From a virus (taxonomy: Duplodnaviria; Heunggongvirae; Uroviricota; Caudoviricetes): a stretch of DNA of 26,889 bases. A program made the position numbers and the translations under genes. The stretch is taken from IMG/VR virus record IMGVR_UViG_2537562020_000004. The stretch is one strand, 5' to 3'. The notes beneath the pieces are model-generated. The model saw only the letters and a program-made list of their open reading frames with translations. It had not been told where the DNA came from and did not search any database. Numbering within the stretch: position 1 is the first letter of the stretch; the number at the start of each line of letters is the position of its first letter. Below, one piece after another: positions 5,865 through 26,889 of this stretch.

Positions 5865-6236
5865 ATGTCAGATGCAAAATCAATCTCGACGCACGACTCG
5901 CAAAACTCACAAAATCAAACTGTGCTGCTAGATCCAACACAGTTTGATGCCATCGTTACCGCCATGCTGCCAGCTCTACAGACAATGATTCGCTCCGCTA
6001 TGTCAGACACGATGACTGTGAAAGACTTCGCCGCTACTCGCGGTGTTAGCGAGCGTCTGGTCTGGCAATGGCTCGATGAGGGAGGCCTTCTCAAAGCTCC
6101 GACCAAAGACTTTTCCAACAAAGAAGAAGCTGCTAAACGAAGCCGAACCCTCGTAAACGTAAAAGCATGGCGCGATAAGCTGACTCAACAAGCGATTGAT
6201 TGTCGCTACATCGACCAGCGCACCGCTCTTAACTGA
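5865..6236 (+). CDS. apl: Apl/Cox-like HTH regulator/excisionase (123 aa as called; true start may be internal)
   Basis: Strong RBS AGGAG upstream of ATG 5865; HTH-like segment TVKDFAATRGVSERLVWQWLDEGGL; first gene of the rightward early operon opposite cI. Confidence 0.6.
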   Translation: MSDAKSISTHDSQNSQNQTVLLDPTQFDAIVTAMLPALQTMIRSAMSDTMTVKDFAATRGVSERLVWQWLDEGGLLKAPTKDFSNKEEAAKRSRTLVNVKAWRDKLTQQAIDCRYIDQRTALN

Positions 6237-6268
6237 ATTTGATTATGCAAGTTAGAGGGAATTTAACC

Positions 6269-6778
6269 ATGTTTGATTTTCAGGTTTCCAAACATCCCCA
6301 CTATGACGAAGCATGCCGCATTTTCGCACAGCGTCACAATATGGCGAAGCTGGCCGAGCGTGCAGGTATGAACGTTCAAACGTTACGTAACAAGCTCAAC
6401 CCGGAACAGCCTCACCAGTTCACGCCGTCTGAATTGTGGCTGCTGACTGACCTGACCGAAGACTCAACCCTCATTGATGGTTTTTTAGCGCAGATTCACT
6501 GCCTACCATGCGTGCCGGTTAATGAGTTGGCTAAAGACAAATTGCAGTCTTATGTCATGCGCGCAATGCGTGAACTCGGCGAACTGGCGAGCGGCGCGGT
6601 ATCTGATGAACGTCTGACCATTGCCCGTAAGCACAACATGATTGAAAGCGTTAACTCCGGCATTCGCATGTTGTCATTGTCGGCTCTGGCTCTGCATGCA
6701 CGTCTGCAGACTAATCCAGCTATGTCGAGCGTGGTCGATACCATGAGCGGTATTGGCGCATCGTTTGGTCTGATTTGA
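6269..6778 (+). CDS. cII: Phage 186 CII-like transcriptional activator (169 aa)
   Basis: Translation MFDFQVSKHPHYDEACRIFAQRHNMAKLAERAGMNVQTLRNKLNPEQPHQF... matches phage 186 CII as I recall it; RBS GAGGG upstream. Confidence 0.8.
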   Translation: MFDFQVSKHPHYDEACRIFAQRHNMAKLAERAGMNVQTLRNKLNPEQPHQFTPSELWLLTDLTEDSTLIDGFLAQIHCLPCVPVNELAKDKLQSYVMRAMRELGELASGAVSDERLTIARKHNMIESVNSGIRMLSLSALALHARLQTNPAMSSVVDTMSGIGASFGLI

Positions 6779-7805: not shown

Positions 7806-10028
7806 TTGGCTGTTCAATTCGCTTATCCGTGGAACGTCCCACGGTCGGCAATCTCCAGCCCATACCTTACTTATGAGCAACAGCATCGCCGCGACCGTAT
7901 GTTCGCGGCTTTGCTGCATGCAAAAAAGGGGCTTTCTCTCCAGCCCGACTGCGTGCGGTTAGATGTTTATCGCACTGCTGCGGTGCTGGAACAAAATCAG
8001 GGTAGTCAACGAGCCAATGCATTTTTAATCAGCTTCTGCAAAAAGGCATTGCCGCGTCTTGAACTGGTCGCAAAAAAATCCGAATGCGCTGGTATCAACA
8101 GCAAGGTATCAACCGCTGTTTTTGGAAGTCATTTTGATACTCAGCAAATGCAATATCTGTCGTCACGCATGGTTAATATGGTCGCCCGATATAACCGTCT
8201 CCCGGACATGTCGCGCGCTGATGTTGACCTGTTGGCCGCTGATATTGCTAATTTCATTCGTGGTGAACTTGCCAACATTAATGACCACGGATTCGGCGAG
8301 CTTAAAACGCTGTACACCTGGTATATTCGTGCTGGCTTTATTTCCCTCCAATTCAACGTTATCCCACCACATTGGGAGCGGGTTGAAAAAAAATATGTCG
8401 GTGCGGATGAAATCGCACCGGCTATCGCCAAAATGTTTAACGATGGGGGGTGGCGCGGTCGTTTGCGCCGTGTAGCAGCTACGTGGCGCGAACACCTGCA
8501 AATTGCAGTCGGCAACGTCAGTAAGAAAAAAAACACTTACGCGAGTAAAAACTGCGTGACTGACTGGCGTGAACAAAAGCGCCGCACTCGTGAATTTCTC
8601 AAAGGTCTGGATCTCGAAGACGAAGACGGCAACCGTATCAGCCTAATTGAAAAATATGATGGCTCAGTTGCTAACCCTGCGATTCGCCGCTGTGAGCTCA
8701 TGACCCGCATTCGTGGGTTTGAAAACATCTGTAATGAGCTCGGTTATGTCGGTGAGTTTTACACTCTAACCGCGCCGTCAAAATATCACGCCACGACTAA
8801 AGCCGGTTACCGTAACAGCAAATGGAGCGGTGCCAGCCCGGCTGACACGCAAAACTATCTAACCGGTATCTGGGCGCGTATCCGTGCCAAACTACATCGG
8901 GAAGATGTCCGTATTTTCGGTATTCGTGTCGCCGAGCCCCATCACGACGGCACTCCACACTGGCACATGCTGATGTTCATGCTGCCGGAAGATGTTGAAT
9001 ATGTTCGCTCCATCGTCCGTAAATACGCATGGAAAGAAGACCGCCACGAACTGAAAAGCGATAAATCCCAAAAAGCACGTTTCCACGCGGAGTCCATTGA
9101 CCCGGAGAAAGGCAGCGCAACCGGCTATGTTGCTAAATACATTTCAAAAAATATCGACGGTTATGCTCTCGATGGTGAAACCGATGATGAAAGCGGTGAG
9201 CTGCTGAAAGAGACAGCCCCCGCCGTTTCAGCATGGGCTGCGCGCTGGCACATCCGTCAGTTTCAGTTTATTGGTGGTGCGCCGGTGACGGTTTACCGTG
9301 AGTTGCGTCGCCTCGCTGATACCGAAACCGCGCACGGTCTGAGCGTTGAGTTTGCCGCCGTCCATGATGCCGCCGACGCTGGTGACTGGGCTGGTTATGT
9401 TAATGCTCAGGGTGGGCCGTTTGTCCGTCGCGATGATTTACAGGTGCGCACACTGTATGAACCGCGTACCGAGCTTAATCAGTACGGTGAGGAAACGGTA
9501 TGTATTAAGGGGGTCTACGATTCCTCCATAGGTGCAGGAAGCCCGATTTTAACCCGGCTCACTCAGTGGAAGATTGTTCCGAAGCGTGCTGTTGATTTGG
9601 CCGTTGACCTTCAGGACGGCAAAGCCGTCCCTCGGAGTTCTGTCAATAACTGTACGGGAAGCGAAAGCGATCCACCGATACTGGATTTAACAAAACCACT
9701 GAGTCGGCGTGAAAGACGAGAATTGACCAACCGACTCAGGAAGCAAAAGCCAGCAGCACGGCGAAAATTCATCCACGGAACGGATGAGCAAAACGCAGCT
9801 ATAGCTAAAACTATCGATGAGATACATCTGACAACCGGCATTAATATCAGCCGGGGCGAAGCCCTGCACCTGATGGCCGGTGGTAAAAGTTGTTTTGATG
9901 GTAAATGGCTACGCGGAACGGCCAAAGGAGAAATATTTTCCGCAGCACCATCGCATGAGGCTAAAGCTCGGAAAATCCTTAATCGTGTTGCGGCGATGGC
10001 TGAAGCATCAAAACCAATACATGAGTAA
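7806..10028 (+). CDS. A: Replication initiation protein A (rolling-circle endonuclease), 740 aa; start codon uncertain (TTG at 7806 or ATG at 7899)
   Basis: Conserved block YTLTAPSKYH...RVAEPHHDGTPHWHMLMF...GYVAKYISKNIDGYALDG characteristic of P2 gpA / 186 A. Confidence 0.9.
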   Translation: MAVQFAYPWNVPRSAISSPYLTYEQQHRRDRMFAALLHAKKGLSLQPDCVRLDVYRTAAVLEQNQGSQRANAFLISFCKKALPRLELVAKKSECAGINSKVSTAVFGSHFDTQQMQYLSSRMVNMVARYNRLPDMSRADVDLLAADIANFIRGELANINDHGFGELKTLYTWYIRAGFISLQFNVIPPHWERVEKKYVGADEIAPAIAKMFNDGGWRGRLRRVAATWREHLQIAVGNVSKKKNTYASKNCVTDWREQKRRTREFLKGLDLEDEDGNRISLIEKYDGSVANPAIRRCELMTRIRGFENICNELGYVGEFYTLTAPSKYHATTKAGYRNSKWSGASPADTQNYLTGIWARIRAKLHREDVRIFGIRVAEPHHDGTPHWHMLMFMLPEDVEYVRSIVRKYAWKEDRHELKSDKSQKARFHAESIDPEKGSATGYVAKYISKNIDGYALDGETDDESGELLKETAPAVSAWAARWHIRQFQFIGGAPVTVYRELRRLADTETAHGLSVEFAAVHDAADAGDWAGYVNAQGGPFVRRDDLQVRTLYEPRTELNQYGEETVCIKGVYDSSIGAGSPILTRLTQWKIVPKRAVDLAVDLQDGKAVPRSSVNNCTGSESDPPILDLTKPLSRRERRELTNRLRKQKPAARRKFIHGTDEQNAAIAKTIDEIHLTTGINISRGEALHLMAGGKSCFDGKWLRGTAKGEIFSAAPSHEAKARKILNRVAAMAEASKPIHE

Positions 10029-10563: not shown

Positions 10564-10632
10564 AACGCCGCCGGTGCTGAAACTTGCTTTCAGTGCTGGC
10601 GGGGTTGAACAACTCGCACCGCGAGGCGCTAG
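10564..10632 (+). repeat. 69 bp hairpin-containing element R1 (direct repeat copy 1)
   Basis: ~88% identical to 10969-11037; contains imperfect inverted repeat GCCGCCGGTGCTGAAA-cttgc-TTTCAGTGCTGGCGG whose mismatches are G-T (G-U wobble in a plus-strand transcript); starts 3 nt after a stop codon. Confidence 0.6.
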
Positions 10633-10756: not shown

Positions 10757-10966
10757 ATGCATCGACTACCGGGCGAAATTCCGCAGCACAAAACTAAAAG
10801 CATCAAACTGATGGCCATCGTTCATCGTCTGCAGCAGATAATGGTCAATGAGAATTTGACACCCGCCGAGCTGGTCGGGTGTGCCGAAATAGTCAGGGAT
10901 AATTACGGCAAGCTGGATAGCATCAGCAAGCCGACACATTACTCACCGCCACCACGTCGACCATAG
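10757..10966 (+). CDS. Hypothetical protein (69 aa) flanked by repeats R1 and R2
   Basis: ORF with RBS GAGGG 7 nt upstream of ATG; no recognisable family. Confidence 0.4.
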   Translation: MHRLPGEIPQHKTKSIKLMAIVHRLQQIMVNENLTPAELVGCAEIVRDNYGKLDSISKPTHYSPPPRRP

Positions 10967-10968
10967 AT

Positions 10969-11037
10969 AACGCCGCCGGAGCTGAAACTCGCTTTCAGGT
11001 CTGGCGGGGTTGAACAACGAGCTACGCGAGGCGTTAG
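10969..11037 (+). repeat. 69 bp hairpin-containing element R2 (direct repeat copy 2)
   Basis: Aligns with R1 with ~8 mismatches; same position relative to the preceding stop codon (TAG 10964-10966). Confidence 0.6.
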
Positions 11038-13988: not shown

Positions 13989-15758
13989 TTAGTTGAACTC
14001 CAGAATAGATTTAGGCTGCATGCCGCTACCGGCAGAAAGCGGTTCGTTTAACAGGGCGTGCATGGTCGCCCATGCGATATCGGCGTGGCTGGCTTCCTCG
14101 GTGCGGCTGGCCTCATAGGTGGCGCAGCGCCCGCTGCTGGTCATGGTTTTGCGGATGGACATAAACGACTGCGTGACGTCGGTTGCTCCGGCGTCGTACT
14201 CCAGACAGCCACGGCGAATGGTGTCTTTCGCCTTGAGTACCATTGCGGTTTTCATTTCAGGTGTGTAACGGATGCCGCGTGCCGCCGGGTAAAATGAGCG
14301 CACCAGCTGGAACACGCCGAGACCGAGGCCGGTTGCGTCAATGCCGATGTATTCGACGTTGTATTTCTCGGTCAGCTTGCGGATGCCCTCTGCCTGTGCT
14401 GCAAAATCCATGCCCTTCCACTGGTGGCGCTCCAGCATGCGGAACTTGCCACCAGAGACCACCGGCGGCGCGAGCACGACGCACCCGGCACTGTCGCCGG
14501 TGTGTGACGGGTCGTAGCCAATCCAGACAGGACGAGAGCCGAACGGATGGTCGGCGAACGGGGCAAAGTCCTCCCATTCCTCCATCACATCGACCATGCA
14601 GCGCTGCAGCTCCTCGAACGGGAATACCGACGCTTTATCGTCGACAAACTCGCACATAAACAGGTTCTTAAAGTCCTCATCACTGTTTTCGCGTTTGAGC
14701 TGGTCGAGGTCGAACAGGGTGCAGCCACCCGCAAGGGCGTCCTCAATGGTGACAATCTGCCGCCACTGGCCATCGTCGCAGAGCTGGCCACCGGCGAGCG
14801 CGCTGTGACTGATGTCGATTTCGATGCGGTCGGCAATCCGGCTGCGCCCCTTGTTGAACAGCTCGCCAGACCAGAAGGGGTAAGCGCCGTGCGCCAGCGT
14901 GGAAGGTGTCGAAAAATAGGTCGAGCGCAGGTGCTTTTGCGAGGCCATGCCCGAGGCGACTTTGCGCAGTTTCTGAAAATTCGGGATCCAGAATATTTCA
15001 TCGACATACAGATCGCCGTTATGGCTCTGCGCGGTGTTGGAATTGGTACCGAGAAAAATCAGTTTTGCGCCGTTGTTACCGATGACAATCGGGTCGCCAG
15101 TCAGGTCAACGTCGACCAGTCGCGCAAACTGGATGATGTATTCGCGGAACACGTAAGCCTGCGTTTTACTGGCTGATAAAAATATCTGGTTATGGCCGGT
15201 TTTGAGTGCGCGCAGCAGTGCCTCGCGGGAGAAATAGAATGTCGCGCCAATCTGGCGGGATTTGAGAATGTCACGAATACGGTGCTCCAGTCCTGCGCGG
15301 TACCACTGCAACTGGTACTCGAAAGACTGGTCGAAAAATAATTCCTCTAGTTTATCGATAGCCTCGTCGCTGAAAAAATTCTTTTTCGGCTTTTTGCGCT
15401 CCCCTTTGTTGCGGTTGGCGACGTTGGGGTTAAGGTCGGCTTCGTTGCCGGTCTGGCTGTAGCGGTTGACTCGCGCCAACCGTTCAATCTGCCGTCCGAG
15501 CAGGTCAATCTCTTTGAAATCACCCCCTGTCTTTTGCGGCTTGGCGATGAGCTGAATCAGCCTGGCCTCAAGGCTGCTTTCAACGCGGGAAATCGGCGCG
15601 ATGCCGTCCCAGCCGTCGCGCTGCTTCCAGCTCTGCACGGTCGGGCGCTTGACCTGCAGCATTTCGGCAATCTGTGGCACGGAAAAACCCTGCCAGTAAA
15701 GCAGCGATGCCTGCCGTCGCGGGTCATGCAACAAGGTTGTATCGGTGGAAATGGTCAT
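13989..15758 (-). CDS. P: Terminase large (ATPase) subunit (P2 gpP-like), 589 aa
   Basis: 589 aa, divergent from the scaffold/capsid operon, nucleotide-binding region (ATFYFSREALLRALKTGHNQIFLSASKTQ), P2 gpP-like organisation. Confidence 0.9.
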   Translation of the reverse strand: MTISTDTTLLHDPRRQASLLYWQGFSVPQIAEMLQVKRPTVQSWKQRDGWDGIAPISRVESSLEARLIQLIAKPQKTGGDFKEIDLLGRQIERLARVNRYSQTGNEADLNPNVANRNKGERKKPKKNFFSDEAIDKLEELFFDQSFEYQLQWYRAGLEHRIRDILKSRQIGATFYFSREALLRALKTGHNQIFLSASKTQAYVFREYIIQFARLVDVDLTGDPIVIGNNGAKLIFLGTNSNTAQSHNGDLYVDEIFWIPNFQKLRKVASGMASQKHLRSTYFSTPSTLAHGAYPFWSGELFNKGRSRIADRIEIDISHSALAGGQLCDDGQWRQIVTIEDALAGGCTLFDLDQLKRENSDEDFKNLFMCEFVDDKASVFPFEELQRCMVDVMEEWEDFAPFADHPFGSRPVWIGYDPSHTGDSAGCVVLAPPVVSGGKFRMLERHQWKGMDFAAQAEGIRKLTEKYNVEYIGIDATGLGLGVFQLVRSFYPAARGIRYTPEMKTAMVLKAKDTIRRGCLEYDAGATDVTQSFMSIRKTMTSSGRCATYEASRTEEASHADIAWATMHALLNEPLSAGSGMQPKSILEFN

Positions 15759-15923
15759 TGATGCCTCGCCGTAGTGGATTCAGGGCAAGGCTACTTAATG
15801 GCCGTCAGTGATTCGCTAAGGTGCTGTTGTGTGGACGGTTGTCCAGTCGTCATTGGTGGTCTGGCGTGTCCTGAGTCTGGAAACTGGCGGTGACCAGTAA
15901 CCTCAACCTCAGGACTCCTGACA

Positions 15924-16778
15924 ATGGCAAAAAAAGTCTCAAAATTCTTTCGCATCGGCGTCGAGGGGGACACCTGCGACGGCCGCATTATCAGCGGCAA
16001 CGATATTCAGGAAATGGCCGAATCGTTTGACCCTCGCGTCTACGGTTGCCGCATTAACCTTGAGCATATTCGCGGTCTCTTTCCTGATGGCGACTTCAAA
16101 CGCTTAGGCGATGTGGTTGAACTGAAAGCTGAAATAATTGACGACGATTCTGCGCTTAACGGCAAATGGGCGTTGTTCGCCAGAATCACCCCAACCGACG
16201 ACCTGATTGCGATGAATAAAAAATTGCAGAAGGTCTACACCTCAATGGAAATTCAGCCGAATTTTGCCAATACCGGCAAATGCTACCTCGTCGGCCTTGC
16301 TGTCACCGATGACCCGGCGAGCCTCGGCACTGAATACCTCGAATTCTGCCGCAACGCGAAGCACAACCCGCTGCAGCGCTTTAAGACCAACCCTGAAAAC
16401 GTCTTTTCCGCTGCCACTCTGGCCGAGCTGGAGTTTGAAGACGTTCCCGACACGGTGCTCAACAGCCTGGCCGATAAGGTGAAAGCCATTTTCAGCCGTA
16501 AGCAGGTCAGCGACGATGCGCGCCTGAATGATGTGCATGAAGCGGTGACCACCGTCAGCGAACATGTGCAAACCAACCTGACAAAACAGGACGAGCGCCT
16601 TTCCGCTATGGAAACCGCGTTTGCCACTTTCAAACAGGAACTGACCGGCAAGGTTGAAGAAACCAGCCAGGCATTTTCCGACCTGAAAACCACCCTCGAT
16701 AAAACCGAAAGTTTCAGCCAGCCGCGACGCACGAAAGCCAGCGGCGGTGGTGGCGATGAGCTGCTGACCGACTGCTGA
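15924..16778 (+). CDS. O: Capsid scaffolding protein (P2 gpO-like), 284 aa
   Basis: Length and position identical to P2 gpO; first gene of the rightward head operon. Confidence 0.9.
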   Translation: MAKKVSKFFRIGVEGDTCDGRIISGNDIQEMAESFDPRVYGCRINLEHIRGLFPDGDFKRLGDVVELKAEIIDDDSALNGKWALFARITPTDDLIAMNKKLQKVYTSMEIQPNFANTGKCYLVGLAVTDDPASLGTEYLEFCRNAKHNPLQRFKTNPENVFSAATLAELEFEDVPDTVLNSLADKVKAIFSRKQVSDDARLNDVHEAVTTVSEHVQTNLTKQDERLSAMETAFATFKQELTGKVEETSQAFSDLKTTLDKTESFSQPRRTKASGGGGDELLTDC

Positions 16779-16854
16779 TAAACCGCAGACCAGAAACCGG
16801 GCGGCATCCCCGCCCGATGCAGTGACTAACCGATAAATTCAAACAGGAAATACT

Positions 16855-17922
16855 ATGCGCCCGGATACCCGTTTTAAGTTCAATGCCTATCTGACCCGCG
16901 TCGCTGAGCTAAACGGCATCAGCACTGATGACGTCAGTAAAAAATTCACCGTCGAGCCGTCCGTCACGCAAACACTGATGAACAAAGTGCAGGAGTCATC
17001 CGCGTTTCTGCAGACGATTAATATTCTGCCGGTCGCAGAAATGAAGGGTGAGAAAATCGGCGTCGGTGTGACCGGTACTATCGCCAGCACGACCGACACC
17101 TCGGGCGATGATGAGCGTAAGACCGCCGACTTCACCGCGCTTGAGTCCAACAAGTACGAGTGCGACCAAATTAATTTTGACTTCCATCTGAAATATAAAA
17201 CCCTCGACCTGTGGGCGCGTTTTCAGGACTTCCAGCGCCGCATCCGCGACGCCATTGTCAAACGTCAGGCACTGGATTTCATCATGGCCGGTTTTAACGG
17301 TACCACCCGCGCCGCCACCTCTGACCGCACCAAAAATCCGATGCTGCAGGATGTGGCCGTCGGCTGGCTGCAGAAATACCGCAATGAAGCCCCGACGCGC
17401 GTGATGAGCAACATCACCGACGCTGACGGTAAGGTCGTTTCAGCAGTGATTCGTGTAGGTCGAAACGGCGACTATGAGAACCTCGACGCGCTGGTGATGG
17501 ACGCCACCAACAACCTGATTGACGAGGTTTATCAGGATGACCCGAAACTCGTTGCCATCGTTGGCCGTAAGCTGCTGGCCGACAAATATTTCCCGCTGGT
17601 GAACAAGCCGCAGGAAAACAGCGAGGCGCTTGCGGCAGATATCATCATCAGCCAGAAGCGAATCGGCAACCTGCCTGCTGTGCGTGTGCCGTACTTCCCG
17701 GCGAATGCCGTGTTAGTGACCACGCTGGAAAACCTATCTATCTATTTCATGGATGAGAGTCACCGCCGCAGCATTGATGAAAACCCGAAAAAAGACCGCG
17801 TTGAAAACTACGAGTCGATGAATATCGACTATGTGGTCGAGGCGTATGCCGCCGGGTGCCTGCTGGAAAACATCACCCTGGGCGATTTCACCGCACCTGC
17901 AGCACCGGAAAGCGGAGCCTAA
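16855..17922 (+). CDS. N: Major capsid protein (P2 gpN-like), 355 aa
   Basis: MRPDTRFKFNAYLTRVAELNGI... closely resembles the P2 gpN N-terminus; follows the scaffold gene. Confidence 0.9.
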   Translation: MRPDTRFKFNAYLTRVAELNGISTDDVSKKFTVEPSVTQTLMNKVQESSAFLQTINILPVAEMKGEKIGVGVTGTIASTTDTSGDDERKTADFTALESNKYECDQINFDFHLKYKTLDLWARFQDFQRRIRDAIVKRQALDFIMAGFNGTTRAATSDRTKNPMLQDVAVGWLQKYRNEAPTRVMSNITDADGKVVSAVIRVGRNGDYENLDALVMDATNNLIDEVYQDDPKLVAIVGRKLLADKYFPLVNKPQENSEALAADIIISQKRIGNLPAVRVPYFPANAVLVTTLENLSIYFMDESHRRSIDENPKKDRVENYESMNIDYVVEAYAAGCLLENITLGDFTAPAAPESGA

Positions 17923-17925
17923 ACC

Positions 17926-18675
17926 ATGACGAGCCCCGCACAGCGTCACATGATGCGGGTCTCGGCCTCTCAAGCCGCGCAGCGGGAGCAAGCCCCGCTG
18001 CGCCATGCAACCGCCTATGAGCAGATGCTGGTTAAGCTGGCCGATGACCGCCGCACGTTAAAAAACATCCGTTCAAACGAACGTAAAGCCGAGAAAAAGC
18101 GCGAGCTGCTGCCGTTCTATGCGCCGTGGGTCGCCGGTGTGCTGGCTGATGGCCGTGGTGCGCAGGATGACATTGTCATGACCGTCATGCTGTGGCGTCT
18201 CGATGCCGGTGATATCGCTGGCGCGCTGGAAATTGCCCCGTACGCGCTGAAATACGGCCTCACCTCTGACCACCGCCGCACAACACCTTACATGCTGGTT
18301 GAGGAAGTGGCGCTTGCTGCGCAGCGCCTGCGCGATGCCGGTGAGTCTGTCGACCTTTCCTGGCTGCAGACCACTATCGACCTGACCGACGGCGCTGACG
18401 TTCCCGATATGGTGCGCGCCCGTCTGCATAAGGTGACAGGCCTGACCCTGCGTGATGCCGGTATGAATGCAGAGGCGCTGGCGCAGTTTCAGCGCGCGAT
18501 GCAGCTCGACCGCAATGCCGGTGTGCGCAAGGAGATTGAGCGACTGGAACGGGCATTGAAGCCAAAGCCAGAGGCCGCGCCCCGTAAAACGACTAAACCG
18601 CGCACGCGCAAACCTGCCAACAAACCGGCGGCAAAGCGCGGGCGTCCACCAAAGGCGGTAAAAACCGCCGGTTAA
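17926..18675 (+). CDS. M: Terminase small/endonuclease subunit (P2 gpM-like), 249 aa
   Basis: Position after N, size ~247 aa, basic C-terminal tail (KPRTRKPANKPAAKRGRPPK). Confidence 0.85.
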   Translation: MTSPAQRHMMRVSASQAAQREQAPLRHATAYEQMLVKLADDRRTLKNIRSNERKAEKKRELLPFYAPWVAGVLADGRGAQDDIVMTVMLWRLDAGDIAGALEIAPYALKYGLTSDHRRTTPYMLVEEVALAAQRLRDAGESVDLSWLQTTIDLTDGADVPDMVRARLHKVTGLTLRDAGMNAEALAQFQRAMQLDRNAGVRKEIERLERALKPKPEAAPRKTTKPRTRKPANKPAAKRGRPPKAVKTAG

Positions 18676-18768
18676 CTGAACGCTCCCCGAGCCGGGCGGC
18701 ACGCCGGTCAAAGCAGGTTTTAACCCTGACGGCGACCGGCGTCCACCGCCCAACCTAATGAGGTTGTC

Positions 18769-19278
18769 ATGACGACAGTAATACTGAATCAGCCCGACGA
18801 ACCGCAGGACGTACCGGGCGTGGTGATTCCCGCACCGGAGACGGGCGACGCAGTGATTAAAAACACGTTCTTTTTCCCTGATGTGGATCCGAAGCGGGTG
18901 CGCGAACTGATGCGCCTTGAGCAGACGGTTTCCGATGCGCGCCTGCGCAACGCCATCAAGACCGGCATGGCGGAAACCAATGCGGAGCTTTACGACTACC
19001 GGCTGCGCCAGATTGCCGCAGGGTTTAAGACACTGGCCGACGTGCCTGACGCCGAGGAAATCGACGGCGAGAATGTGCGCGTTTTCCACTACCTCAGCGC
19101 CGTGACGGCGATGGCGACCGCCACCCTGTATGAGCGTTATCGCGGGGTTGAGGCCACGGGCAAGGGTGACAAAAAAGCCGACAGCGTCGAAACCACCATT
19201 GATGACCTGTGGCGGGATATGCGCTGGTCGGTCTCGCGTCTGCAGGACAAGCCGCGCTGCATCGTGGGTCAGCTCTGA
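18769..19278 (+). CDS. L: Head completion/stabilisation protein (P2 gpL-like), 169 aa
   Basis: Size and position match P2 gpL. Confidence 0.85.
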   Translation: MTTVILNQPDEPQDVPGVVIPAPETGDAVIKNTFFFPDVDPKRVRELMRLEQTVSDARLRNAIKTGMAETNAELYDYRLRQIAAGFKTLADVPDAEEIDGENVRVFHYLSAVTAMATATLYERYRGVEATGKGDKKADSVETTIDDLWRDMRWSVSRLQDKPRCIVGQL

Positions 19279-19481
19279 TGAAAGTCTACGCGATGCAGGG
19301 CGACACCCTCGACGCGCTTTGCGCCCGGTATTACGGGCGCACTGAGGGCGTGGTCGAGACGGTGCTGCAGGCTAATCCCGGTCTGTCTGAGCTGGGCGTC
19401 ATTCTGCCGCATGGCACGGCGATTGACCTGCCCGACGTGGCATCGTCACCCGTAACAGAAACTATCAACCTTTGGGAGTAA
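19278..19481 (+). CDS. X: Tail protein X (P2 gpX-like), 67 aa
   Basis: ATG overlaps the stop of L; 67 aa; MKVYAMQGDTLDALCARYYGRTEGVVETVLQANPGL resembles P2 gpX (LysM-like). Confidence 0.8.
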   Translation: MKVYAMQGDTLDALCARYYGRTEGVVETVLQANPGLSELGVILPHGTAIDLPDVASSPVTETINLWE

Positions 19482-19484
19482 ACC

Positions 19485-19781
19485 ATGACAGAAGGGGAAA
19501 AAGGCGTCCTGTCACTGTTTGTGATTGGCGTGATGATTGTTGTCGGAAAAGTGCTGGCGGGGGGTGAGCCCATTACCCCGCGCCTGTTTATCGGCCGCAT
19601 GCTGCTCGGCGGTTTTGTTTCAATGGTCGCCGGTGTTGTTCTGGTGCAGTTTCCAGATATGTCACTGCCTGCCGTTTGTGGGATTGGATCCATGCTCGGC
19701 ATTGCAGGTTATCAGGTGGTGGAAATCGCCATTCAGCGCCGCTTTAAGTCACAACAGGGGGATAGCGATGCCGATCATTAA
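19485..19781 (+). CDS. Y: Holin (P2 gpY-like), 98 aa
   Basis: Three hydrophobic segments; near-identical to my recollection of the P2 holin (LSLF.IGV.IVVGKVLAGGEPITPRLFIGRMLLGGFVSM). Confidence 0.85.
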   Translation: MTEGEKGVLSLFVIGVMIVVGKVLAGGEPITPRLFIGRMLLGGFVSMVAGVVLVQFPDMSLPAVCGIGSMLGIAGYQVVEIAIQRRFKSQQGDSDADH

Positions 19782-20265
19782 TACTCACCAGAATATCGCC
19801 GCATTTCTGGACATGCTGGCCTATTCCGAAGGGACGGCGACGCATCCGCTGACGAAAAATCGTGGTTACGACGTCATTGTCACTGGCCTTGATGGCAAGC
19901 CGGAAATTTTCACCGACTACACCGACCACCCTTTCGCACATGGCAGACCAGCGAAAGTGTTTAATCGACGCGGCGAAAAATCCACGGCATCAGGGCGTTA
20001 CCAGCAGCTTTATCTCTACTGGCCGCACTATCAGAAACAACTCGCATTGCCTGATTTCAGCCCGTTGTCGCAGGACAAACTTGCGATTCAGTTAATCCGC
20101 GAACGCGGTGCCATTGAGGATATTAAGGCGGGGCGTATTGAGCGGGCAATTTCACGGTGCCGCAATATCTGGGCGTCGTTACCGGGTGCCGGTTACGGCC
20201 AACGTGAGCACAGCCTCGACAAACTGGTCACCGTATGGCGCACCGCTGGCGGGGTAATGGAATGA
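19768..20265 (+). CDS. K: Endolysin/lysozyme (P2 gpK-like), 165 aa
   Basis: Start MPIINTHQNIAAFLDMLAYSEGT typical of P2-family lysozymes; overlaps holin 3' end. Confidence 0.85.
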   Translation: MPIINTHQNIAAFLDMLAYSEGTATHPLTKNRGYDVIVTGLDGKPEIFTDYTDHPFAHGRPAKVFNRRGEKSTASGRYQQLYLYWPHYQKQLALPDFSPLSQDKLAIQLIRERGAIEDIKAGRIERAISRCRNIWASLPGAGYGQREHSLDKLVTVWRTAGGVME

Positions 20266-20675
20266 AAATCCTGATTACACTTCTGGTGCTGACTGTGCTC
20301 GGGATGTTGTGGTTGCGCCATGAGAACGGCAATTTATCCCGCTCCTTTGAGACAGCAAACCGCGTCGCGAGCGAACAAAAGACGACGATTGGCATGCTGA
20401 AAAATCAGCTCAGTGTTGCCGGTCAGCTTGCCAGACGTAATGAATCTGCGCAGGTGGCACTGCGTGAACAGCTCGCAAAGGCCAGCGAGGAAGCCAGCCG
20501 CCGCGAGCAATCAATAACGAGGTTACTTAATGAAAATGAAGCCTTTCGCCGCTGGTATAACGCTGCTTTACCTGATGTTGTGCGTCGGTTGCACACCCGA
20601 CCCGCCTGCGCCAGCGCCGGTGATTGTGGTCAGCGGATGCCCGAGGGTGAGCCTTTGCCCGATGCCGGGCAGTGA
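20262..20675 (+). CDS. lysB: Inner-membrane spanin component (Rz/LysB-like), 137 aa
   Basis: N-terminal TM helix followed by charged coiled-coil-like periplasmic region; contains an embedded +1 frame lipoprotein ORF. Confidence 0.7.
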   Translation: MKILITLLVLTVLGMLWLRHENGNLSRSFETANRVASEQKTTIGMLKNQLSVAGQLARRNESAQVALREQLAKASEEASRREQSITRLLNENEAFRRWYNAALPDVVRRLHTRPACASAGDCGQRMPEGEPLPDAGQ

Positions 20676-20820
20676 CCCGAAAACCAATGGTGACCTGAGC
20701 GCGGATATCCGCCGTCTTGAGGGCGCGCTGACTGCCTGCGCGCTGCAGGTCAAAACCGTCAAACACTGTCAGGATGAACTCGATGCAGAAGCACAAAAGC
20801 CTGCGCAAGGCGCTGATTAA
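20530..20820 (+). CDS. lysC: Outer-membrane spanin lipoprotein (Rz1/LysC-like), 96 aa, partly embedded in lysB
   Basis: Signal peptide with lipobox LCVGC, proline-rich mature region (TPDPPAPAPV); out-of-frame overlap with the i-spanin. Confidence 0.65.
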   Translation: MKMKPFAAGITLLYLMLCVGCTPDPPAPAPVIVVSGCPRVSLCPMPGSDPKTNGDLSADIRRLEGALTACALQVKTVKHCQDELDAEAQKPAQGAD

Positions 20821-21250
20821 CGCTGTACCCCAGCTCAGAAACAACCCCGATATGCTGCGTCTTTTCGCCGACAACGGGCATATCGATTCCCGACTGGCGA
20901 GCTCGCTGTCGTTTGAAAAGGTGTACGTGCTTAACATGGTGGTGACCGACTTTACCGGCGACCTCGATTTGATATTCGTGCCAGTGCAGGCGTGGCTGCG
21001 TGAACATCAGCCGGACATTATGACCACCGACGACGGGCGGGAAAAAGGATTCACCTGGATTATTGATATCAATAACGACGATTCGCTCGATATCAGTATC
21101 AGCCTGAGGCTCACCGAGCGCACGCTCGTCAAAGAGGTCGACGGCGCGCTGCATGTCAGCTATGCCCCAGAGCCGCCGCTGCCTGAGCCGGTGACGCGCC
21201 CGGTCGAGCTGTACGTTAATGGCGAACTGGTGAGTAAGTGGGATGAGTGA
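20774..21250 (+). CDS. R: Tail completion protein R (P2 gpR-like)
   Basis: C-terminal region ...PVTRPVELYVNGELVSKWDE and size match P2 gpR. Confidence 0.85.
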   Translation: MNSMQKHKSLRKALINAVPQLRNNPDMLRLFADNGHIDSRLASSLSFEKVYVLNMVVTDFTGDLDLIFVPVQAWLREHQPDIMTTDDGREKGFTWIIDINNDDSLDISISLRLTERTLVKEVDGALHVSYAPEPPLPEPVTRPVELYVNGELVSKWDE

Positions 21251-21698
21251 GTTAACCGCGCTACAGGAACGTCTTGCCGGTCTGATTGCCAGCCTGTCAC
21301 CGGCGGCGCGTCGGCAAATGGCGGCTGACATTGCAAAAAAACTGCGCGCCAGTCAGCAACAGCGCATTAAGCGCCAGCAGGCACCTGACGGCACCCCGTA
21401 TGCCGCCAGAAAGCGCCAGCCGGTGCGGAGCAAGAGAGGCCGTATCAGGCGCGAAATGTTCGCCAAACTGCGCAGCACTAACCGCTTTATGAAAGCCAAA
21501 GGCAGCGACAGTGCGGCAGTGGGGGAGTTTACCGACAAGGTACAGCGCATGGCGCGGGTGCATCAGTACGGCCTCAAAGACCGGCCAAACCGCAACAGCC
21601 GGGATGTGCAGTACGAGGCACGCCCGTTGTTCGGTTTCACCCGGGACGATGAACTGCTTGTTGAGAAGCTAATAATCGGAGCTATTAGAAATGGTTAA
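21243..21698 (+). CDS. S: Tail completion protein S (P2 gpS-like), 151 aa
   Basis: ATG overlaps R stop; size and position match P2 gpS. Confidence 0.85.
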   Translation: MSELTALQERLAGLIASLSPAARRQMAADIAKKLRASQQQRIKRQQAPDGTPYAARKRQPVRSKRGRIRREMFAKLRSTNRFMKAKGSDSAAVGEFTDKVQRMARVHQYGLKDRPNRNSRDVQYEARPLFGFTRDDELLVEKLIIGAIRNG

Positions 21699-21749
21699 TT
21701 AACAAAAGCATGCTAACTCTTGACAATTTGACAACTAGAGTGCACCCTA

Positions 21750-21777
21750 ACGCCAGTCAATAGAGTGCGACTGGCGT
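21750..21777. repeat. Inverted repeat ACGCCAGTC-N10-GACTGGCGT between S and the convergent cargo gene
   Basis: Perfect 9 bp stem; no clear U-tract, so terminator function is uncertain. Confidence 0.3.
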
Positions 21778-21815
21778 CAAGGAAGATTTTAATCTTTCTT
21801 TAGTGGTTCGATTCC

Positions 21816-22691
21816 CTAGCCTCGTAAATATCGTTTAGTAAATTTCGTGTTTGGTCTGGATGATAGGATTTGTCTTTCTATTTCACTATCACAGTCTATA
21901 TAGTCTAGTGTATTAGCTTCTATAAGTTTGTTCACGTCAATATTTTTTGCATCGATTATGTTGGCATTTCTAAGGTTTGCATTGGTGTATTCCACTTTAT
22001 CCAAATCACACTCTCTGAGTACGCAACTTTTCATTTCCGCATTGGAAAAATCCCCACCATATAAATAGCAGCCTTCAAAAATAACACCGTTTAACTTTGA
22101 ATCCTGAGCTTTAATATTTTTTATTTTACACTTTATAAATTTTACGTTTTTCATTTTGCTCTTGCTAATATTTAATGCCTGGATTGTACATCCAGTGAAA
22201 GAACAGTCTCTTATGTTAGATTTTTCCATATTTAACCCAGATAGTTCTGAGGTTTTAAAGTGTAAGTATTTAATGGTAAAAAGGTCACCCAACTCCATTC
22301 TGGGTATGTCTATATTGAAGACACCTTTATTGTTGAGCTGTCTTATTATTTTTATTTTTTGTATTTTCAAATCAACATTAACGTGCTTAGCTAAGTTTCC
22401 CAAATCCTCAAGAAGTTCATTAATCGTTTCTTTGTTTTGTCTTCTGTATTCAAAGTAATAAAGGATGACACCTAATACAAAAAAATCCAAAATGGATGAA
22501 TTTGCATTTATTAGGAACCCAGACAGGAATGAATCATTGTAATTACCATAGTGTATAGAGGCAAGTGTTACGCCAAATGCATATAAAATAAAAATAATAA
22601 ACACGTGCTTCATTTTGCATAAGGATTGTATTATTGGTTTTATGGCATCAATTTTGTTCATTGCTGCAGCAGCGAAAGATTTAAAAGTCAT
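21816..22691 (-). CDS. AT-rich membrane protein (291 aa) with two N-terminal TM helices and C-terminal pentapeptide repeats; cargo gene between S and V
   Basis: AT-biased ORF antiparallel to the tail genes; hydrophobic segments HVFIIFILYAFGVTLASI and ILDFFVLGVILYYF; ~14 consecutive 5-residue repeats with central hydrophobic residue (SKMKN VKFIK CKIKN ... ANLRN ANIID). Confidence 0.7.
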   Translation of the reverse strand: MTFKSFAAAAMNKIDAIKPIIQSLCKMKHVFIIFILYAFGVTLASIHYGNYNDSFLSGFLINANSSILDFFVLGVILYYFEYRRQNKETINELLEDLGNLAKHVNVDLKIQKIKIIRQLNNKGVFNIDIPRMELGDLFTIKYLHFKTSELSGLNMEKSNIRDCSFTGCTIQALNISKSKMKNVKFIKCKIKNIKAQDSKLNGVIFEGCYLYGGDFSNAEMKSCVLRECDLDKVEYTNANLRNANIIDAKNIDVNKLIEANTLDYIDCDSEIERQILSSRPNTKFTKRYLRG

Positions 22692-22844
22692 TCTATTTTT
22701 AATGCATTCAGATTAAATGGGATTGATGATTTTTACGTGCCCAATGATGCGTGTCAATCAGATCTTTGAAAGTGTCTTGCTGTGTGAGCCCCTTTCCAAT
22801 CCCGAAGTTTTGTCTGCAATGAAAAGAAGCGGCATGCTTACATA

Positions 22845-23480
22845 ATGAATACATCAAATATCATTCAAGAGCTTGCCCGTGCAATACGCAACCTCATTCG
22901 CACAGGGGTGGTGACTGAGGTCGATACCGTGCAGGGGCTGTGCCGTGTACAAAGCGGCGGGATCCAGACTACATGGCTGAACTGGCTGACCACCCGAGCC
23001 GGTCGTTCGCGGACGTGGTGGGCTCCCTCGGTCGGTGAGCAGGTTCTGCTGCTGGCAATCGGTGGCGAGCTTGATACCGCTTTCGTGCTGCCGGGTATTT
23101 TCTCCGACGATAACCCCGCCCCGTCTGCCTCGGCGGATGCGTGGCATGTGGCTTTCCCTGATGGTGCGGTCATTGAGTACGAGCCCGAGGCCGGCGCGCT
23201 GACGGCCAGCGGTATCAAAACTGCCGACGTGACGGCATCGGAGTCCATCACTGCAACCGTACCGCTGGTACTGGTGAAAGCCTCGACCAGTATCACCCTC
23301 GACACCCCGGAGGTGATTTGCACCAATAAGCTGACGACAGCGACGCTTGAGGTACAAAAAGGCGGCAAGATGAGCGGCAATATCGAACATACCGGCGGGT
23401 CACTGTCGTCTAATGGCAAGGTACTCCACACCCATAAACACCCAGGCGACAGCGGCGGGCAAACGGGGGCACCGTTATGA
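22845..23480 (+). CDS. V: Baseplate spike/assembly protein V (P2 gpV-like), 211 aa
   Basis: Size and position match P2 gpV; C-terminal HTHKHPGDSGGQTGAP is the conserved spike apex motif. Confidence 0.9.
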   Translation: MNTSNIIQELARAIRNLIRTGVVTEVDTVQGLCRVQSGGIQTTWLNWLTTRAGRSRTWWAPSVGEQVLLLAIGGELDTAFVLPGIFSDDNPAPSASADAWHVAFPDGAVIEYEPEAGALTASGIKTADVTASESITATVPLVLVKASTSITLDTPEVICTNKLTTATLEVQKGGKMSGNIEHTGGSLSSNGKVLHTHKHPGDSGGQTGAPL

Positions 23481-23824
23481 CGGCGCGCTATCAGGGTATG
23501 AACCGAAATACCGGCCTCGGCATCAGCGACACTGAGCACATCAGCCAGAGCATGCGCGACATACTGCTGACGCCGGTCGGCTCGCGGGTGATGCGCCGTG
23601 AATATGGCTCGCTTCTGTCGGCGCTGATTGATATGCCGCAAAACCCGGCGCTCAGGCTGCAAATTATGGTGGCGTGCTATTCGGCTATCCAGAAGTGGGA
23701 GCCGCGCATCAGGCTTACCTCCATCAACTTTGAGACCGGCGACGCTGGCGAAATGTATGTCGATATTACCGGGATGCGTACCGATACCGGTGCGTCAGTT
23801 TCAACCACTGTTTCACTGAGTTAA
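23477..23824 (+). CDS. W: Baseplate wedge protein W (GPW/gp25 family), 115 aa
   Basis: ATG overlaps V stop; 115 aa; gp25-like sequence. Confidence 0.9.
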   Translation: MTARYQGMNRNTGLGISDTEHISQSMRDILLTPVGSRVMRREYGSLLSALIDMPQNPALRLQIMVACYSAIQKWEPRIRLTSINFETGDAGEMYVDITGMRTDTGASVSTTVSLS

Positions 23825-23830
23825 ATCACT

Positions 23831-24739
23831 ATGGCAACCGTTGACCTGAGTCAGTTACCCGTTCCCGATGTGGTTGAGGAACTGGACTATGAAACTATCC
23901 TTGCGGAACGCATTGCGACGCTGATTTCGCTCTATCCCGAAGACCAGCAGGAGGCCATTGCCCGGACGCTCACACTTGAGTCAGAGCCGATTGTTAAGCT
24001 GCTGCAGGAAAACGCCTACCGTGAAGTTATCTGGCGTCAGCGGGTGAACGAAGCCGCGCAGGCGGTGACGCTGGCCTACTCCGCCGGTAACGACCTCGAC
24101 GTCGTAGCCGGGAACAATAATACCGAACGCCTGACCATCACCCCGGCGGATGATACCACCATCCCGCCGACACCTGCCGTTATGGAATCTGATACCGACC
24201 TGCGACTGCGCACGCAACAGGCGTTTGAGGGATTGAGCGTGGCGGGTCCGGTCGGTGCATATGAGTATCACGGCCGCAGCGCCGACGGGCGGGTCGCTGA
24301 CGTTTCGGTCGCCAGCCCGTCGCCAGCCTGCGTGACGATTACCGTGCTATCGCGTGAGGGGGACGGCACTGCCAGCCCTGAGCTACTGGCGATTGTTGAT
24401 AAAGCGCTGAACGCCGAAGATGTGCGCCCGGTAGCTGACCGGGTGACCGTCCAGTCAGCCGAGATTGTGCCGTACCAGATTGACGCGACGATCTACGTTT
24501 ACCCCGGCCCCGAATCTGAACCCATCAGGCAGGCGTCAGAGCAGAAGTTGCAGAGCTACATCAGCGCGCAGCACCGCCTCGGGCGTGATATCCGTCTGTC
24601 AGCCATTTATGCGGCGCTGCATGTTGAGGGGGTGCAGCGTGTCGAGCTGACATCACCGCAGGCCGACATAGTGCTGAGTAAGTCGCAGGCGTCGAACTGT
24701 ACCGAGTACCAGATAACTATCGGGGGCTCGGATGAATGA
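23831..24739 (+). CDS. J: Baseplate assembly protein J (P2 gpJ-like), 302 aa
   Basis: Size and position match P2 gpJ. Confidence 0.9.
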   Translation: MATVDLSQLPVPDVVEELDYETILAERIATLISLYPEDQQEAIARTLTLESEPIVKLLQENAYREVIWRQRVNEAAQAVTLAYSAGNDLDVVAGNNNTERLTITPADDTTIPPTPAVMESDTDLRLRTQQAFEGLSVAGPVGAYEYHGRSADGRVADVSVASPSPACVTITVLSREGDGTASPELLAIVDKALNAEDVRPVADRVTVQSAEIVPYQIDATIYVYPGPESEPIRQASEQKLQSYISAQHRLGRDIRLSAIYAALHVEGVQRVELTSPQADIVLSKSQASNCTEYQITIGGSDE

Positions 24740-25340
24740 CCGGCTATTACCCGTTGGCTCGTCGCCGCTGGAGGTTGCCGCCGCTGCCGCGCTCTCTGAG
24801 ATTCAGCGTGTGCCGGTACCGCTGCGCACTCTGTGGAACTGGCGCACCTGCCCGGTAAAACTGCTGCCGTATCTGGCGTGGGCGCTGTCGGTCGACAGGT
24901 GGGATGAGAAATGGCCGGAGGCGACAAAGCGTAGCGTCTGCGCGTCCTCGTTTTTCGTCCATCAGCACAAAGGCACCATTAGCGCATTGCGTCGGGTGGT
25001 TGAGCCGCTCGGCTTTCTGATTGAAGTGCGCGAGTGGTGGCAGCTCAACGAGGAGCCAGGCACATTCCGCCTCGTTGTCGGCGTGCTCGATAGCGGCATT
25101 ACTGACGAAATGTATCAGGAGCTTGAGCGCCTGATTGAAGACGCCAAACCGGCAAGTCGCCACCTGACCGGGCTGGCTATCAGTCTGAGCTCGACCGGCG
25201 AACTGTATGTCGGCGCGGGATGCTATCACGGCGACGCGCTGACTGTTTACCCCTACACCCCCGAGGAGATTGTCGTCGGCGGTGAATATTACCCGGCCTC
25301 GGCCATCCATTTGATTGATAACCTGAGAGTGAACGCATGA
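24732..25340 (+). CDS. I: Tail protein I (P2 gpI-like), 202 aa
   Basis: Overlaps J stop; position between J and H. Confidence 0.85.
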   Translation: MNDRLLPVGSSPLEVAAAAALSEIQRVPVPLRTLWNWRTCPVKLLPYLAWALSVDRWDEKWPEATKRSVCASSFFVHQHKGTISALRRVVEPLGFLIEVREWWQLNEEPGTFRLVVGVLDSGITDEMYQELERLIEDAKPASRHLTGLAISLSSTGELYVGAGCYHGDALTVYPYTPEEIVVGGEYYPASAIHLIDNLRVNA

Positions 25341-26158
25341 CCGCAAAATATTTTGCCATTCTGACCAATCAGGGCGCGGCGCGGCTGGCGAACGCGGCGG
25401 CACTCGGTACCAAACTCAACCTGACGCAGATGGCCGTCGGTGATGCGAATGGTACGTTGCCGACCCCTGACCCGGCGCAGACGAAGCTCATTAACCAGAA
25501 ACGCATCGCGCCGCTGAACCTGCTGACCGTTGACCCGGCCAATACCAGTCAGATTATCGCGGAACAGATTATTCCCGAGAATGAAGGTGGTTTCTGGATC
25601 CGCGAGATTGGTCTCTATGACGATGATGGTATTCTGATTGCCGTGGCGAACTGTCCGGAGACCTACAAGCCACAACTGCAGGAGGGAAGCGGTCGCACGC
25701 AGACCATTCGCATGATTCTGATTGTGTCGAGCACATCGGCAATCACCCTGAAAATCGACCCGGCAGTCGTGCTGGCAACGCGCCAGTATGTCGACGACAA
25801 GATTATCGAGGTGAAAGGATATGCTGATGACCTGATGAAAAAACATGTTGAGGCCGCCAATCCACACAAGCAGTACCCGTTAATCGCTAATGCTCTGAAA
25901 GAAATGGTTGACGCGGGACTGGCCGGCGACGTTCTTAAAAACCTTGGTTTGGGAGAAGGTGCTCCAGCTATTGGCGTTCCGTTCTTCTGGCCGTCCGCTG
26001 CAATGCCAAATACTGTAATCGACAGCTGGTCCAGTATGGTGTTTTTGAAGTTCAACGGGGCGAAATTTTCTGCCTCTGATTACCCTGTGCTGGCGAAAGT
26101 GTTTCCTTCACTGGTATTACCTGAAGCCCGCGGTGTGACACACGTACATAGCCAATAA
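25337..26158 (+). pseudogene. H: Tail fibre protein H, N-terminal portion (273 codons) ending at a premature stop after a duplicated segment
   Basis: P2 gpH-like conserved N-terminus (MTAKYFAILTNQGAARLANAAALG...GFWIREIGLYDDDGILIAVAN); frame ends with ...PEARGVTHVHSQ* right after repeat copy 1. Confidence 0.7.
25944..26139 (+). repeat. 196 bp direct repeat, copy 1 (inside tail fibre gene H)
   Basis: Identical to 26229-26424 except 4 substitutions (aligned by eye). Confidence 0.85.
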
Positions 26159-26188
26159 GCATGGTAGATCTCCCTGACAAAAGCAGGA

Positions 26189-26686
26189 ATGATGCCATTT
26201 GCTCGTTATTTCTGCATTTTCATAAATGTTGGTTTGGGAGAAGGTGCTCCAGCTATTGGCGTTCCGTTCTTCTGGCCGTCCGCTGCAATGCCAAATACTG
26301 TAATCGACAGCTGGTCCAGTATGGTGTTTTTGAAGTTCAACGGCGCGAAATTCTCTGCCACTGATTATCCTGTGCTGGCGAAAGTGTTTCCTTCACTGGT
26401 ATTACCTGAAGCCCGCGGTGATTTCATTCGTATCTGGGATGACGGGCGAGGTGCCGATGGTGGTCGCGAATTATTAAGCTGGCAGGAAGCTACAAACTTT
26501 TCTCAGTTTGCCGGGAATATAGGCGGAGGTGCGGGACACGCAATTAACTTTCATGATGGCATCGCCGGAAATCAGCCAGGATTTTCACGATTTAATTTCA
26601 CCAGTAACTCTGTGGGTGATGGTGTGAATTTTGTTGCTGTCAGACCGCGAAATATTGCATTTAACTTTCTGGTGAGGGCTAAATAA
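26189..26686 (+). CDS. H: Tail fibre H C-terminal portion (165 aa ORF starting in the inter-repeat spacer)
   Basis: ORF begins ATGATG in the spacer, re-encodes the duplicated peptide and continues ...GDFIRIWDDGRGADGG... to a stop overlapping the next gene start. Confidence 0.5.
   Translation: MMPFARYFCIFINVGLGEGAPAIGVPFFWPSAAMPNTVIDSWSSMVFLKFNGAKFSATDYPVLAKVFPSLVLPEARGDFIRIWDDGRGADGGRELLSWQEATNFSQFAGNIGGGAGHAINFHDGIAGNQPGFSRFNFTSNSVGDGVNFVAVRPRNIAFNFLVRAK
26229..26424 (+). repeat. 196 bp direct repeat, copy 2
   Basis: Same sequence as copy 1, 285 bp (a multiple of 3) downstream; 89 bp unique spacer between copies. Confidence 0.85.
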
Positions 26687-26889
26687 TGAAACCTGTTTTT
26701 GATGAAAATGGGCTGGCTACAGTGCCGGGCGATATGCGTTGTTTTTATTATGATGCTGAAACATCTGAGTATACGGGCTGGTCTGATGAATATATTAATA
26801 CTGGCGTAAGTATGCCCGCCTGTTCCACTGGTATTGACCCTGGCGAAAACATTCCGGGAAGAGTGGCAGTATTTACAGGTAAGGGATGG
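26686..26889 (+). CDS. G: Tail fibre assembly protein (Tfa/gpG-like), N-terminal part, truncated by window end
   Basis: Immediately follows the tail fibre gene with overlapping stop/start; ...SMPACSTGIDPGENIPGRVAVFTGKGW resembles the conserved N-terminal region of Tfa chaperones. Confidence 0.7.
   Translation, partial: MKPVFDENGLATVPGDMRCFYYDAETSEYTGWSDEYINTGVSMPACSTGIDPGENIPGRVAVFTGKGW

Follow-up and report, generated by a model that had tools for sequence, protein, structure and literature searches.

Why does tail-fibre gene H of a P2-like prophage from Escherichia coli run into a stop codon just past a stretch of sequence that is then repeated, almost letter for letter, at the head of a second reading frame? 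The window analysed is the entire draft contig AQCZ01000071.1 (26,889 bp) of assembly GCA_000354315.2, from the CS3-positive ETEC strain BCE019_MS-13, and it contains the P2-like prophage together with the left chromosomal flank of the prophage. The assembly is dated 2013 and was made from short reads; for the laboratory's ETEC collection as a whole, sequencing is described as Illumina HiSeq with 300-bp paired-end libraries at more than 200x, assembled with Celera Assembler and with contigs of at least 500 bp retained (PMC4462620).

The contig is collinear with the complete genome of E. coli E1535, with 11 substitutions in 26,604 nt and no indel, and a 285-nt block within H is the sole structural difference between the two. 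Seven of the 11 substitutions have G in the window and T in E1535 (positions of substitutions include 6085, 7930, 8448, 13525, 15968, 19562 and 21523), a one-sided spectrum that points away from evolution and towards an artefact of sequencing or damage in one of the two assemblies. Two further features of the contig were recorded in passing. A gene for a 291-aa pentapeptide-repeat protein (21816-22691, minus strand), with a GC content of about 0.30 against about 0.58 around it, lies between P2 genes S and V; the prophages of E1535, TW10598, 222 and VG888-46E9 keep it at that position too, so that it looks like a stable moron. A 69-nt direct repeat (10564-10632 and 10969-11037, 87% identity), each copy containing a hairpin-like palindrome CCGCCGGTGCTGAAA...TTTCAGTGCTGGCGG, flanks a small ORF (10757-10966) that follows the replication gene and a DinI-family gene, and has no Rfam match.

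The reading frames and repeat copies at the right end of the contig are as follows.

25337..26158, plus strand: ORF1, truncated gene H, 273 aa, with Phage_tail_fib (PF12571, E=6.5e-63), ending in ...PEARGVTHVHSQ and a stop codon.
25944..26135, plus strand: repeat copy 1, covering 192 nt from the start of the variable cassette, in its prophage (P) allele, identical to the P2-like prophage of E1535.
26229..26420, plus strand: repeat copy 2, with the relic-locus (E) allele at four clustered SNPs (26344, 26353, 26360 and 26368).
26189..26686, plus strand: ORF2, 165 aa, starting in the pin upstream region and continuing into the silent cassette (C-terminal 152 residues of H).
26686..26889, plus strand: tail-fibre assembly gene (G/Tfa), first 68 codons, with Caudo_TAP_N (PF28596), cut by the contig end.

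By exact comparison the direct repeat extends over 192 nt (25944-26135 against 26229-26420), with 98% identity and a period of 285 nt; it is far beyond chance expectation and is one of only two direct repeats of at least 30 nt detected in the contig. The two copies differ at four positions (26059 G/C, 26068 T/C, 26075 T/A and 26083 C/T), three of which are synonymous while the remaining one changes S to T. So synonymous-rich a set of mismatches is, judged from the sequence, the pattern of two diverged functional alleles. A preliminary description of this DNA, made from the letters alone, had reported a 196-bp duplication with four differences and an 89-bp spacer. The repeat and its four mismatches stand, but the copies had been drawn 4 nt too far to the right: 26136-26139 (tgac) and 26421-26424 (attt) do not match, and the spacer is therefore 93 nt long (26136-26228). 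The two ORFs had been described correctly, as had the 285-bp unit whose deletion restores H. With 26136-26420 removed, H encodes an intact protein of 354 aa, the same in sequence as WP_134881174.1 of E. coli E1535. The divisibility of 285 by three is uninformative, because frame restoration holds for any direct duplication.

Residues 1-266 of ORF1 are identical to the intact H of E1535, as is the underlying DNA (25300-26135, 100% identity), whereas the last seven residues (VTHVHSQ) and the stop codon come from antisense pin sequence. The terminus ...GVTHVHSQ, which had been raised as a possible alternative allele end, is thus rather antisense pin codons 9-3 read in frame. The 273-aa product is deposited as EMV40224.1, annotated “phage tail-collar fiber family protein”, and is recorded on one contig only, against more than 100 contigs for the intact 354-aa form.

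Each repeat copy starts at the centre of a 26-bp crossover site of the Pin/Gin type (hix/gix-like), consisting of two 12-bp half-sites around a 2-bp core.

25932..25957, strand not applicable: crossover site 1, TTCTTAAAAACC-TT-GGTTTGGGAGAA, inside H codons ...VLKNLGLGE, where the constant part Hc gives way to the exchangeable cassette.
26217..26242, strand not applicable: crossover site 2, pin-proximal, TTTTCATAAATG-TT-GGTTTGGGAGAA, in the same orientation as site 1.

No other 26-mer of the window scores as highly as these two (30.2 for site 1 and 28.7 for site 2, against a window background of -21.4 +/- 7.7). The 16-mer TTGGTTTGGGAGAAGG, which heads both repeat copies, is found twice in the window where none would be expected by chance, and is the published inversion repeat of the e14 P segment, inverted by PinE/PinQ (PMC12529663). 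In relatives of the prophage the layout is Hc, site, two opposed cassettes (each a variable part plus chaperone, on opposite strands), site and pin. Hc is 100% identical in strains 222, VG888-46E9, TW10598 and E1535, and the cassettes that follow it differ from 25953-25958 onward, which confirms exchange at the crossover site.

The underlying system is already known and is textbook material: in the P segment of e14 (PinE), the G segment of Mu (Gin) and the C segment of P1 (Cin), as here, the N-terminal constant part lies outside the segment, the C-terminal parts and their chaperones lie inside it, and the 26-bp site falls within coding sequence, with two opposed cassettes and an invertase present in the relatives. 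The window departs from these systems in that its two sites are directly repeated at a spacing of no more than 285 nt, that it has 27 nt (nine codons) of an invertase in place of an adjacent intact serine invertase gene, and that the second site comes from another locus. No inverted repeat is found in the window; the inverted partner site, which exists in relatives (E1535 6231-6270 / 8027-8066), falls past the contig end. The sequence of the window as written is not a working switch. A reading in which the structure is real and constitutes a reversible OFF state, with the 285-nt unit excised by RecA or, less plausibly, by Pin acting in trans, is in our view very unlikely.

The origin of the second site is revealed by the spacer that precedes it.

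26136..26162, minus strand: start of a pinE-type serine DNA invertase gene, MLIGYVRVS in translation, 27 nt, cut after codon 9.
26163..26216, minus strand: pinE upstream (5' UTR/promoter) region, from the identity of 26136-26260 to relic loci.

Read on the minus strand, the spacer gives ATG CTT ATT GGC TAT GTA CGT GTG TCA (MLIGYVRVS), and one phage match beneath it is annotated “DNA invertase”. The segment 26136-26260 matches the pinE relic loci of ETEC strains 2014EL-1346-6 and TW10598 (O6:H16 ETEC) at 100% identity, and the sequence is also present in E1535; against the pin-proximal region of the closest P2-like prophages (E1535, 222 and VG888-46E9) its identity reaches only 74-76%. The gene order at the relic locus is paoD, a LEM-3-like gene, pinE, two opposed cassettes, pinE and avs2 (loci L005 5509-8462, L017 3509-6454 and L020 16118-19071), and the full invertase gene in L005 carries Resolvase and HTH_7 domains. 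Intact pinE genes occur in the relic loci, while the pin gene of the closest prophage is frameshifted. In the complete genome of TW10598, relic and P2-like prophage are about 2.3 Mb apart. The relic segment has opposite orientations in E1535 and 2014EL-1346-6, which indicates that inversion is active in the lineage.

Some observations on these loci stand apart from the duplication. The relic is a cassette pair without a constant-part gene, with two divergent pinE genes flanking it, placed between the LEM-3-like GIY-YIG gene and avs2, and recalls the anti-phage inversion of PinQ and e14 StfE2 (PMC12529663). It shares with the PinQ/PinE inversion of the e14 P segment a cassette with pinE, a position beside a defence gene, avs2, and the occurrence of both orientations; unlike that system, the relic lies outside the window and the likeness is one of sequence only (PMC12529663). 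The P2-like prophage of TW10598 (L016 5001-8047), of the same prophage family, has an intact invertase and a flipped segment, in which Hc is annotated as truncated and the alternative gp53-like cassette stands by itself as a short ORF. The alternative cassette of E1535 is of 101 aa only and its site is degenerate (40 nt, 73% complementary). Given these findings in TW10598 and E1535, one orientation of the prophage segment may be a natural OFF state.

Since the repeat starts at a crossover site and the spacer is antisense pinE, copy 2 is not a continuation of H, as had been proposed, but the ordinary promoter-less silent cassette of an invertible segment. The start of ORF2 is accidental, lying in the pin upstream region. 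Its 164-aa form is recorded in 65 collection blocks, is adjoined by a divergent Resolvase/HTH_7 gene in nine of the ten loci listed, in Mu-like as well as P2-like prophages, and carries the RefSeq label “phage tail protein, missing N-terminus”.

These identities bear on the idea that the arrangement is a conserved functional design, whether a two-ORF split fibre, a template/variable pair of a diversity-generating retroelement (DGR) or a mobile-element insertion of the Campbell type. What would attract such a reading is that the near-perfect repeat lies where a tail fibre has its receptor-binding end, but we find it hardly credible: no relative has the two-copy, two-ORF arrangement, which the preliminary description had named as evidence for such a design, and H is intact on the more than 100 contigs mentioned above; the spacer is a pin gene fragment without element content; and ORF2 is the usual silent cassette by the invertase. 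A DGR template/variable repeat was rejected, as the mismatches (G/C, T/C, T/A and C/T) are not adenine-specific and three are synonymous; no reverse-transcriptase Pfam family was found among the genes called on 15337-26889, the right-hand 11.5 kb. The earlier suggestion of a Campbell-type insertion, and with it any transposable-element insertion, was likewise abandoned, because the insert consists of 93 nt of the pin 5' end and its upstream region, with no mobile-element content, and the left junction is blunt and non-homologous.

The positions of the repeat copies at crossover sites and the antisense pinE spacer together mean that a single junction joins prophage gene H to the invertase-proximal silent cassette end of the pinE relic, which lies elsewhere in the chromosome. 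Downstream of this junction the window follows first one parent and then the other.

26135..26136, strand not applicable: novel blunt junction GCGGTG/TGACAC, H joined to antisense pin codon 9.
26136..26394, plus strand: stretch identical to the pinE relic (E parent), with no mismatch to L005 or L020 until 26395.
26369..26889, plus strand: stretch identical to H-G of the P2-like prophage (P parent), with no mismatch to E1535 after 26368.

Throughout 25300-26889 the window agrees base for base with one or other of the two loci, both of which are present in E1535. The relic allele differs from the window at 26395, 26455, 26458, 26487 and 26526, and the sequence is therefore a mosaic of P (up to 26135), E (26136 to x) and P (x to 26889), where x lies between 26369 and 26394, such that there is a single switch from E to P inside a stretch of 26 identical nucleotides. 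We considered whether the 754-nt block from 26136 to the contig end could instead be a natural contiguous haplotype, and rejected this because its combination of alleles is absent from the nine loci, of ten retrieved, that could be aligned and from 5,426 complete genomes, where the best DNA match is 99.3%, although its exact 164-aa protein is common. As none of these has the combination contiguously, the E/P mosaic stands.

At the junction itself, the parental sequences are ...CCCGCGGTG/ATTTCA in H and ...CATTTGT/TGACAC in antisense pin, which share no microhomology to the left or right of the join. Searches of 5,426 complete E. coli genomes, of a set with one genome per species and of JGI metagenomes did not recover the junction; a 48-aa antisense ORF across it is not on record, and junction-spanning ORFs are limited to this contig. 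A role for the invertase is invited by the crossover sites at which both repeat copies begin and by the pin fragment at the junction, and could take the form of Pin acting at a quasi site in the repeat end and the pin gene, or of an inversion between H and pin within the prophage. Such a rearrangement is highly improbable, since the junction lies off the crossover sites. In the half-site model the parental sequences score -16 to -22, at background level, where genuine sites score +29 to +33, and they have no common 2-bp core (TG in H, GT in pin), from which it follows that the invertase did not make the join at a secondary site. Inversion between H and the prophage's own pin was rejected on the spacer, with its 74-76% identity to the pin flank of the closest P2-like prophages against 100% to the distant relic.

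Two explanations then carry most of the weight. One, possible but unlikely in our judgement, is a real one-off ectopic insertion, in which about 233-259 bp of the pinE relic locus, extending from pin codon 9 past the crossover site and into the cassette, would have been copied into prophage H. Its right end would have arisen by homologous recombination at 26369-26394 and its left end by an illegitimate join at 26135, a pattern of homology-facilitated illegitimate recombination or templated break-repair. This agrees with the finding of exactly one homologous and one non-homologous junction, with both parents in the genome, and with the nature of tail-fibre cassettes as recombination hot spots, seen in relatives where an identical Hc is joined to different cassettes. 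Homology-facilitated illegitimate recombination is known from Acinetobacter and Streptococcus pneumoniae, and normally involves 3-10 nt of microhomology and replacement of recipient DNA. A real insertion here would resemble it in pairing one homologous with one illegitimate junction, but would differ in lacking microhomology and in duplicating the recipient sequence. Because microhomology at the join is zero, a replicative template switch could not have been primed there; and because the insert has prophage sequence (26084/26109-26135) on either flank, the event would require two template switches or two sister molecules rather than a simple double crossover. It also counts against a real insertion that the junction is unique among all genomes searched, and that only 754 nt separate it from the end of a draft contig, an end that is itself a branch point of a repeat. 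Were the insertion real, H would be truncated, leaving an inactive fibre, and two directly repeated crossover sites would have been created; RecA could then delete the 285-nt unit and restore H.

The other explanation, which we hold to be the probable one, is that the 285-nt duplication is an assembly artefact on top of ordinary biology. The duplication is absent from the near-identical genome of E1535, and its junction lies in a multi-copy repeat that the assembly left unresolved. The left end of the contig (1-277) is within an IS1B copy, contributing 277 nt of IS1, and alignments of other genomes begin only at position 278; the right end (26889) is one base before the next difference between prophage (A) and relic (C), after 363 identical nucleotides. 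Thus both contig ends sit in repeats, and the position of the right one shows that the assembly contained the two loci without resolving them. Breaks inside this cassette recur in other draft assemblies, where a 301-aa partial H ends within a few nucleotides of the SNP at 26526.

The strain carries an exchangeable cassette of the Pin/Gin type, made up of the variable part of H and chaperone G, in two near-identical versions: an expressed P copy, fused at the 26-bp site to Hc in the P2-like prophage, and a promoter-less E copy next to pinE in the relic invertible locus beside avs2. The two are alike to the right of the crossover site and differ in their left flanks, Hc in one case and antisense pinE in the other. 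From the segment identities, the two parental loci, the blunt junction and its uniqueness, and the position of the contig end, all of which are observed, we infer how the assembler proceeded. One assembled piece would run from unique prophage sequence 192 nt into the cassette and end at 26135, while a second, of 754 nt (26136-26889), would begin in the pinE flank, follow the E allele across the four-SNP cluster, collapse onto P and end at the next divergence of the two loci. These pieces would truly overlap by 192 nt yet be laid end to end, because the foreign 93-nt overhang of the second would block a proper dovetail overlap, and the tandem unit of 285 nt, the stop codon and the second ORF would all be spurious products of that placement. 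The run of 277 nt into IS1 at the left end of the contig is similar to the run of 192 nt into the cassette, so that 26135 looks like a natural piece end. A separate argument, that 26136 marks a repeat boundary between pin copies, was rejected; it is weak and was given no weight, because the position is 3 nt past a difference cluster and the pin copies are only about 94% identical beyond it. A random chimeric read would be a poor explanation, as the two loci are related only through the repeat, and concatenation of overlapping pieces is what would link them. A culture containing both orientations of the segment may have tangled the assembly further.

The consensus step of Celera Assembler may abut unitigs that fail to align; a literature search for support of such abutting of non-overlapping unitigs found nothing usable. 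The closest described class of error is that of “duplicated overlapping contigs” (PMC2864568), in which near-identical sequences with a small SNP cluster are likewise kept apart and then laid adjacent to one another; those cases differ in that they involve two diploid haplotypes, placed in separate contigs with a gap, whereas here haploid paralogous loci meet in a gapless join inside one contig.

Several points count against an artefact. Kelley and Salzberg (2010) note that overlap-graph assemblers seldom misassemble duplications within one contig, since some path of reads has to pass through both copies (PMC2864568); by the same token, a clean join within a single contig from an overlap assembler usually means that reads span it, as a real insertion would have it (PMC2864568). 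The join is perfectly clean, without the garbled bases that a forced or failed overlap might produce. Past the switch, each of the five SNPs has the P allele, an outcome with a chance of about 6% in a 50:50 collapsed consensus, unless P reads predominate.

With an assembly artefact, a possibility that the preliminary description had itself raised, as the favoured explanation, the split fibre of that description survives only in part: the two ORFs exist in the sequence, but a natural split gene is probably not real, and a misjoin probably produced both EMV40224.1 and the 164-aa ORF beside it. Its proposal of two tail-fibre alleles was right in that different alleles of the variable part, P and E, are involved, although a recombination footprint between them is less likely than a misassembly. 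If the junction were nonetheless real, it would represent the pseudogenisation of a prophage fibre in a single isolate by ectopic recombination between cassette copies, and would be of modest interest for the spread of cassettes between prophages and relic loci in defence islands. The main value of the case is one of caution: invertible fibre cassettes that are multi-copy, and sometimes of mixed orientation, are sites where short-read assemblies break and misjoin.
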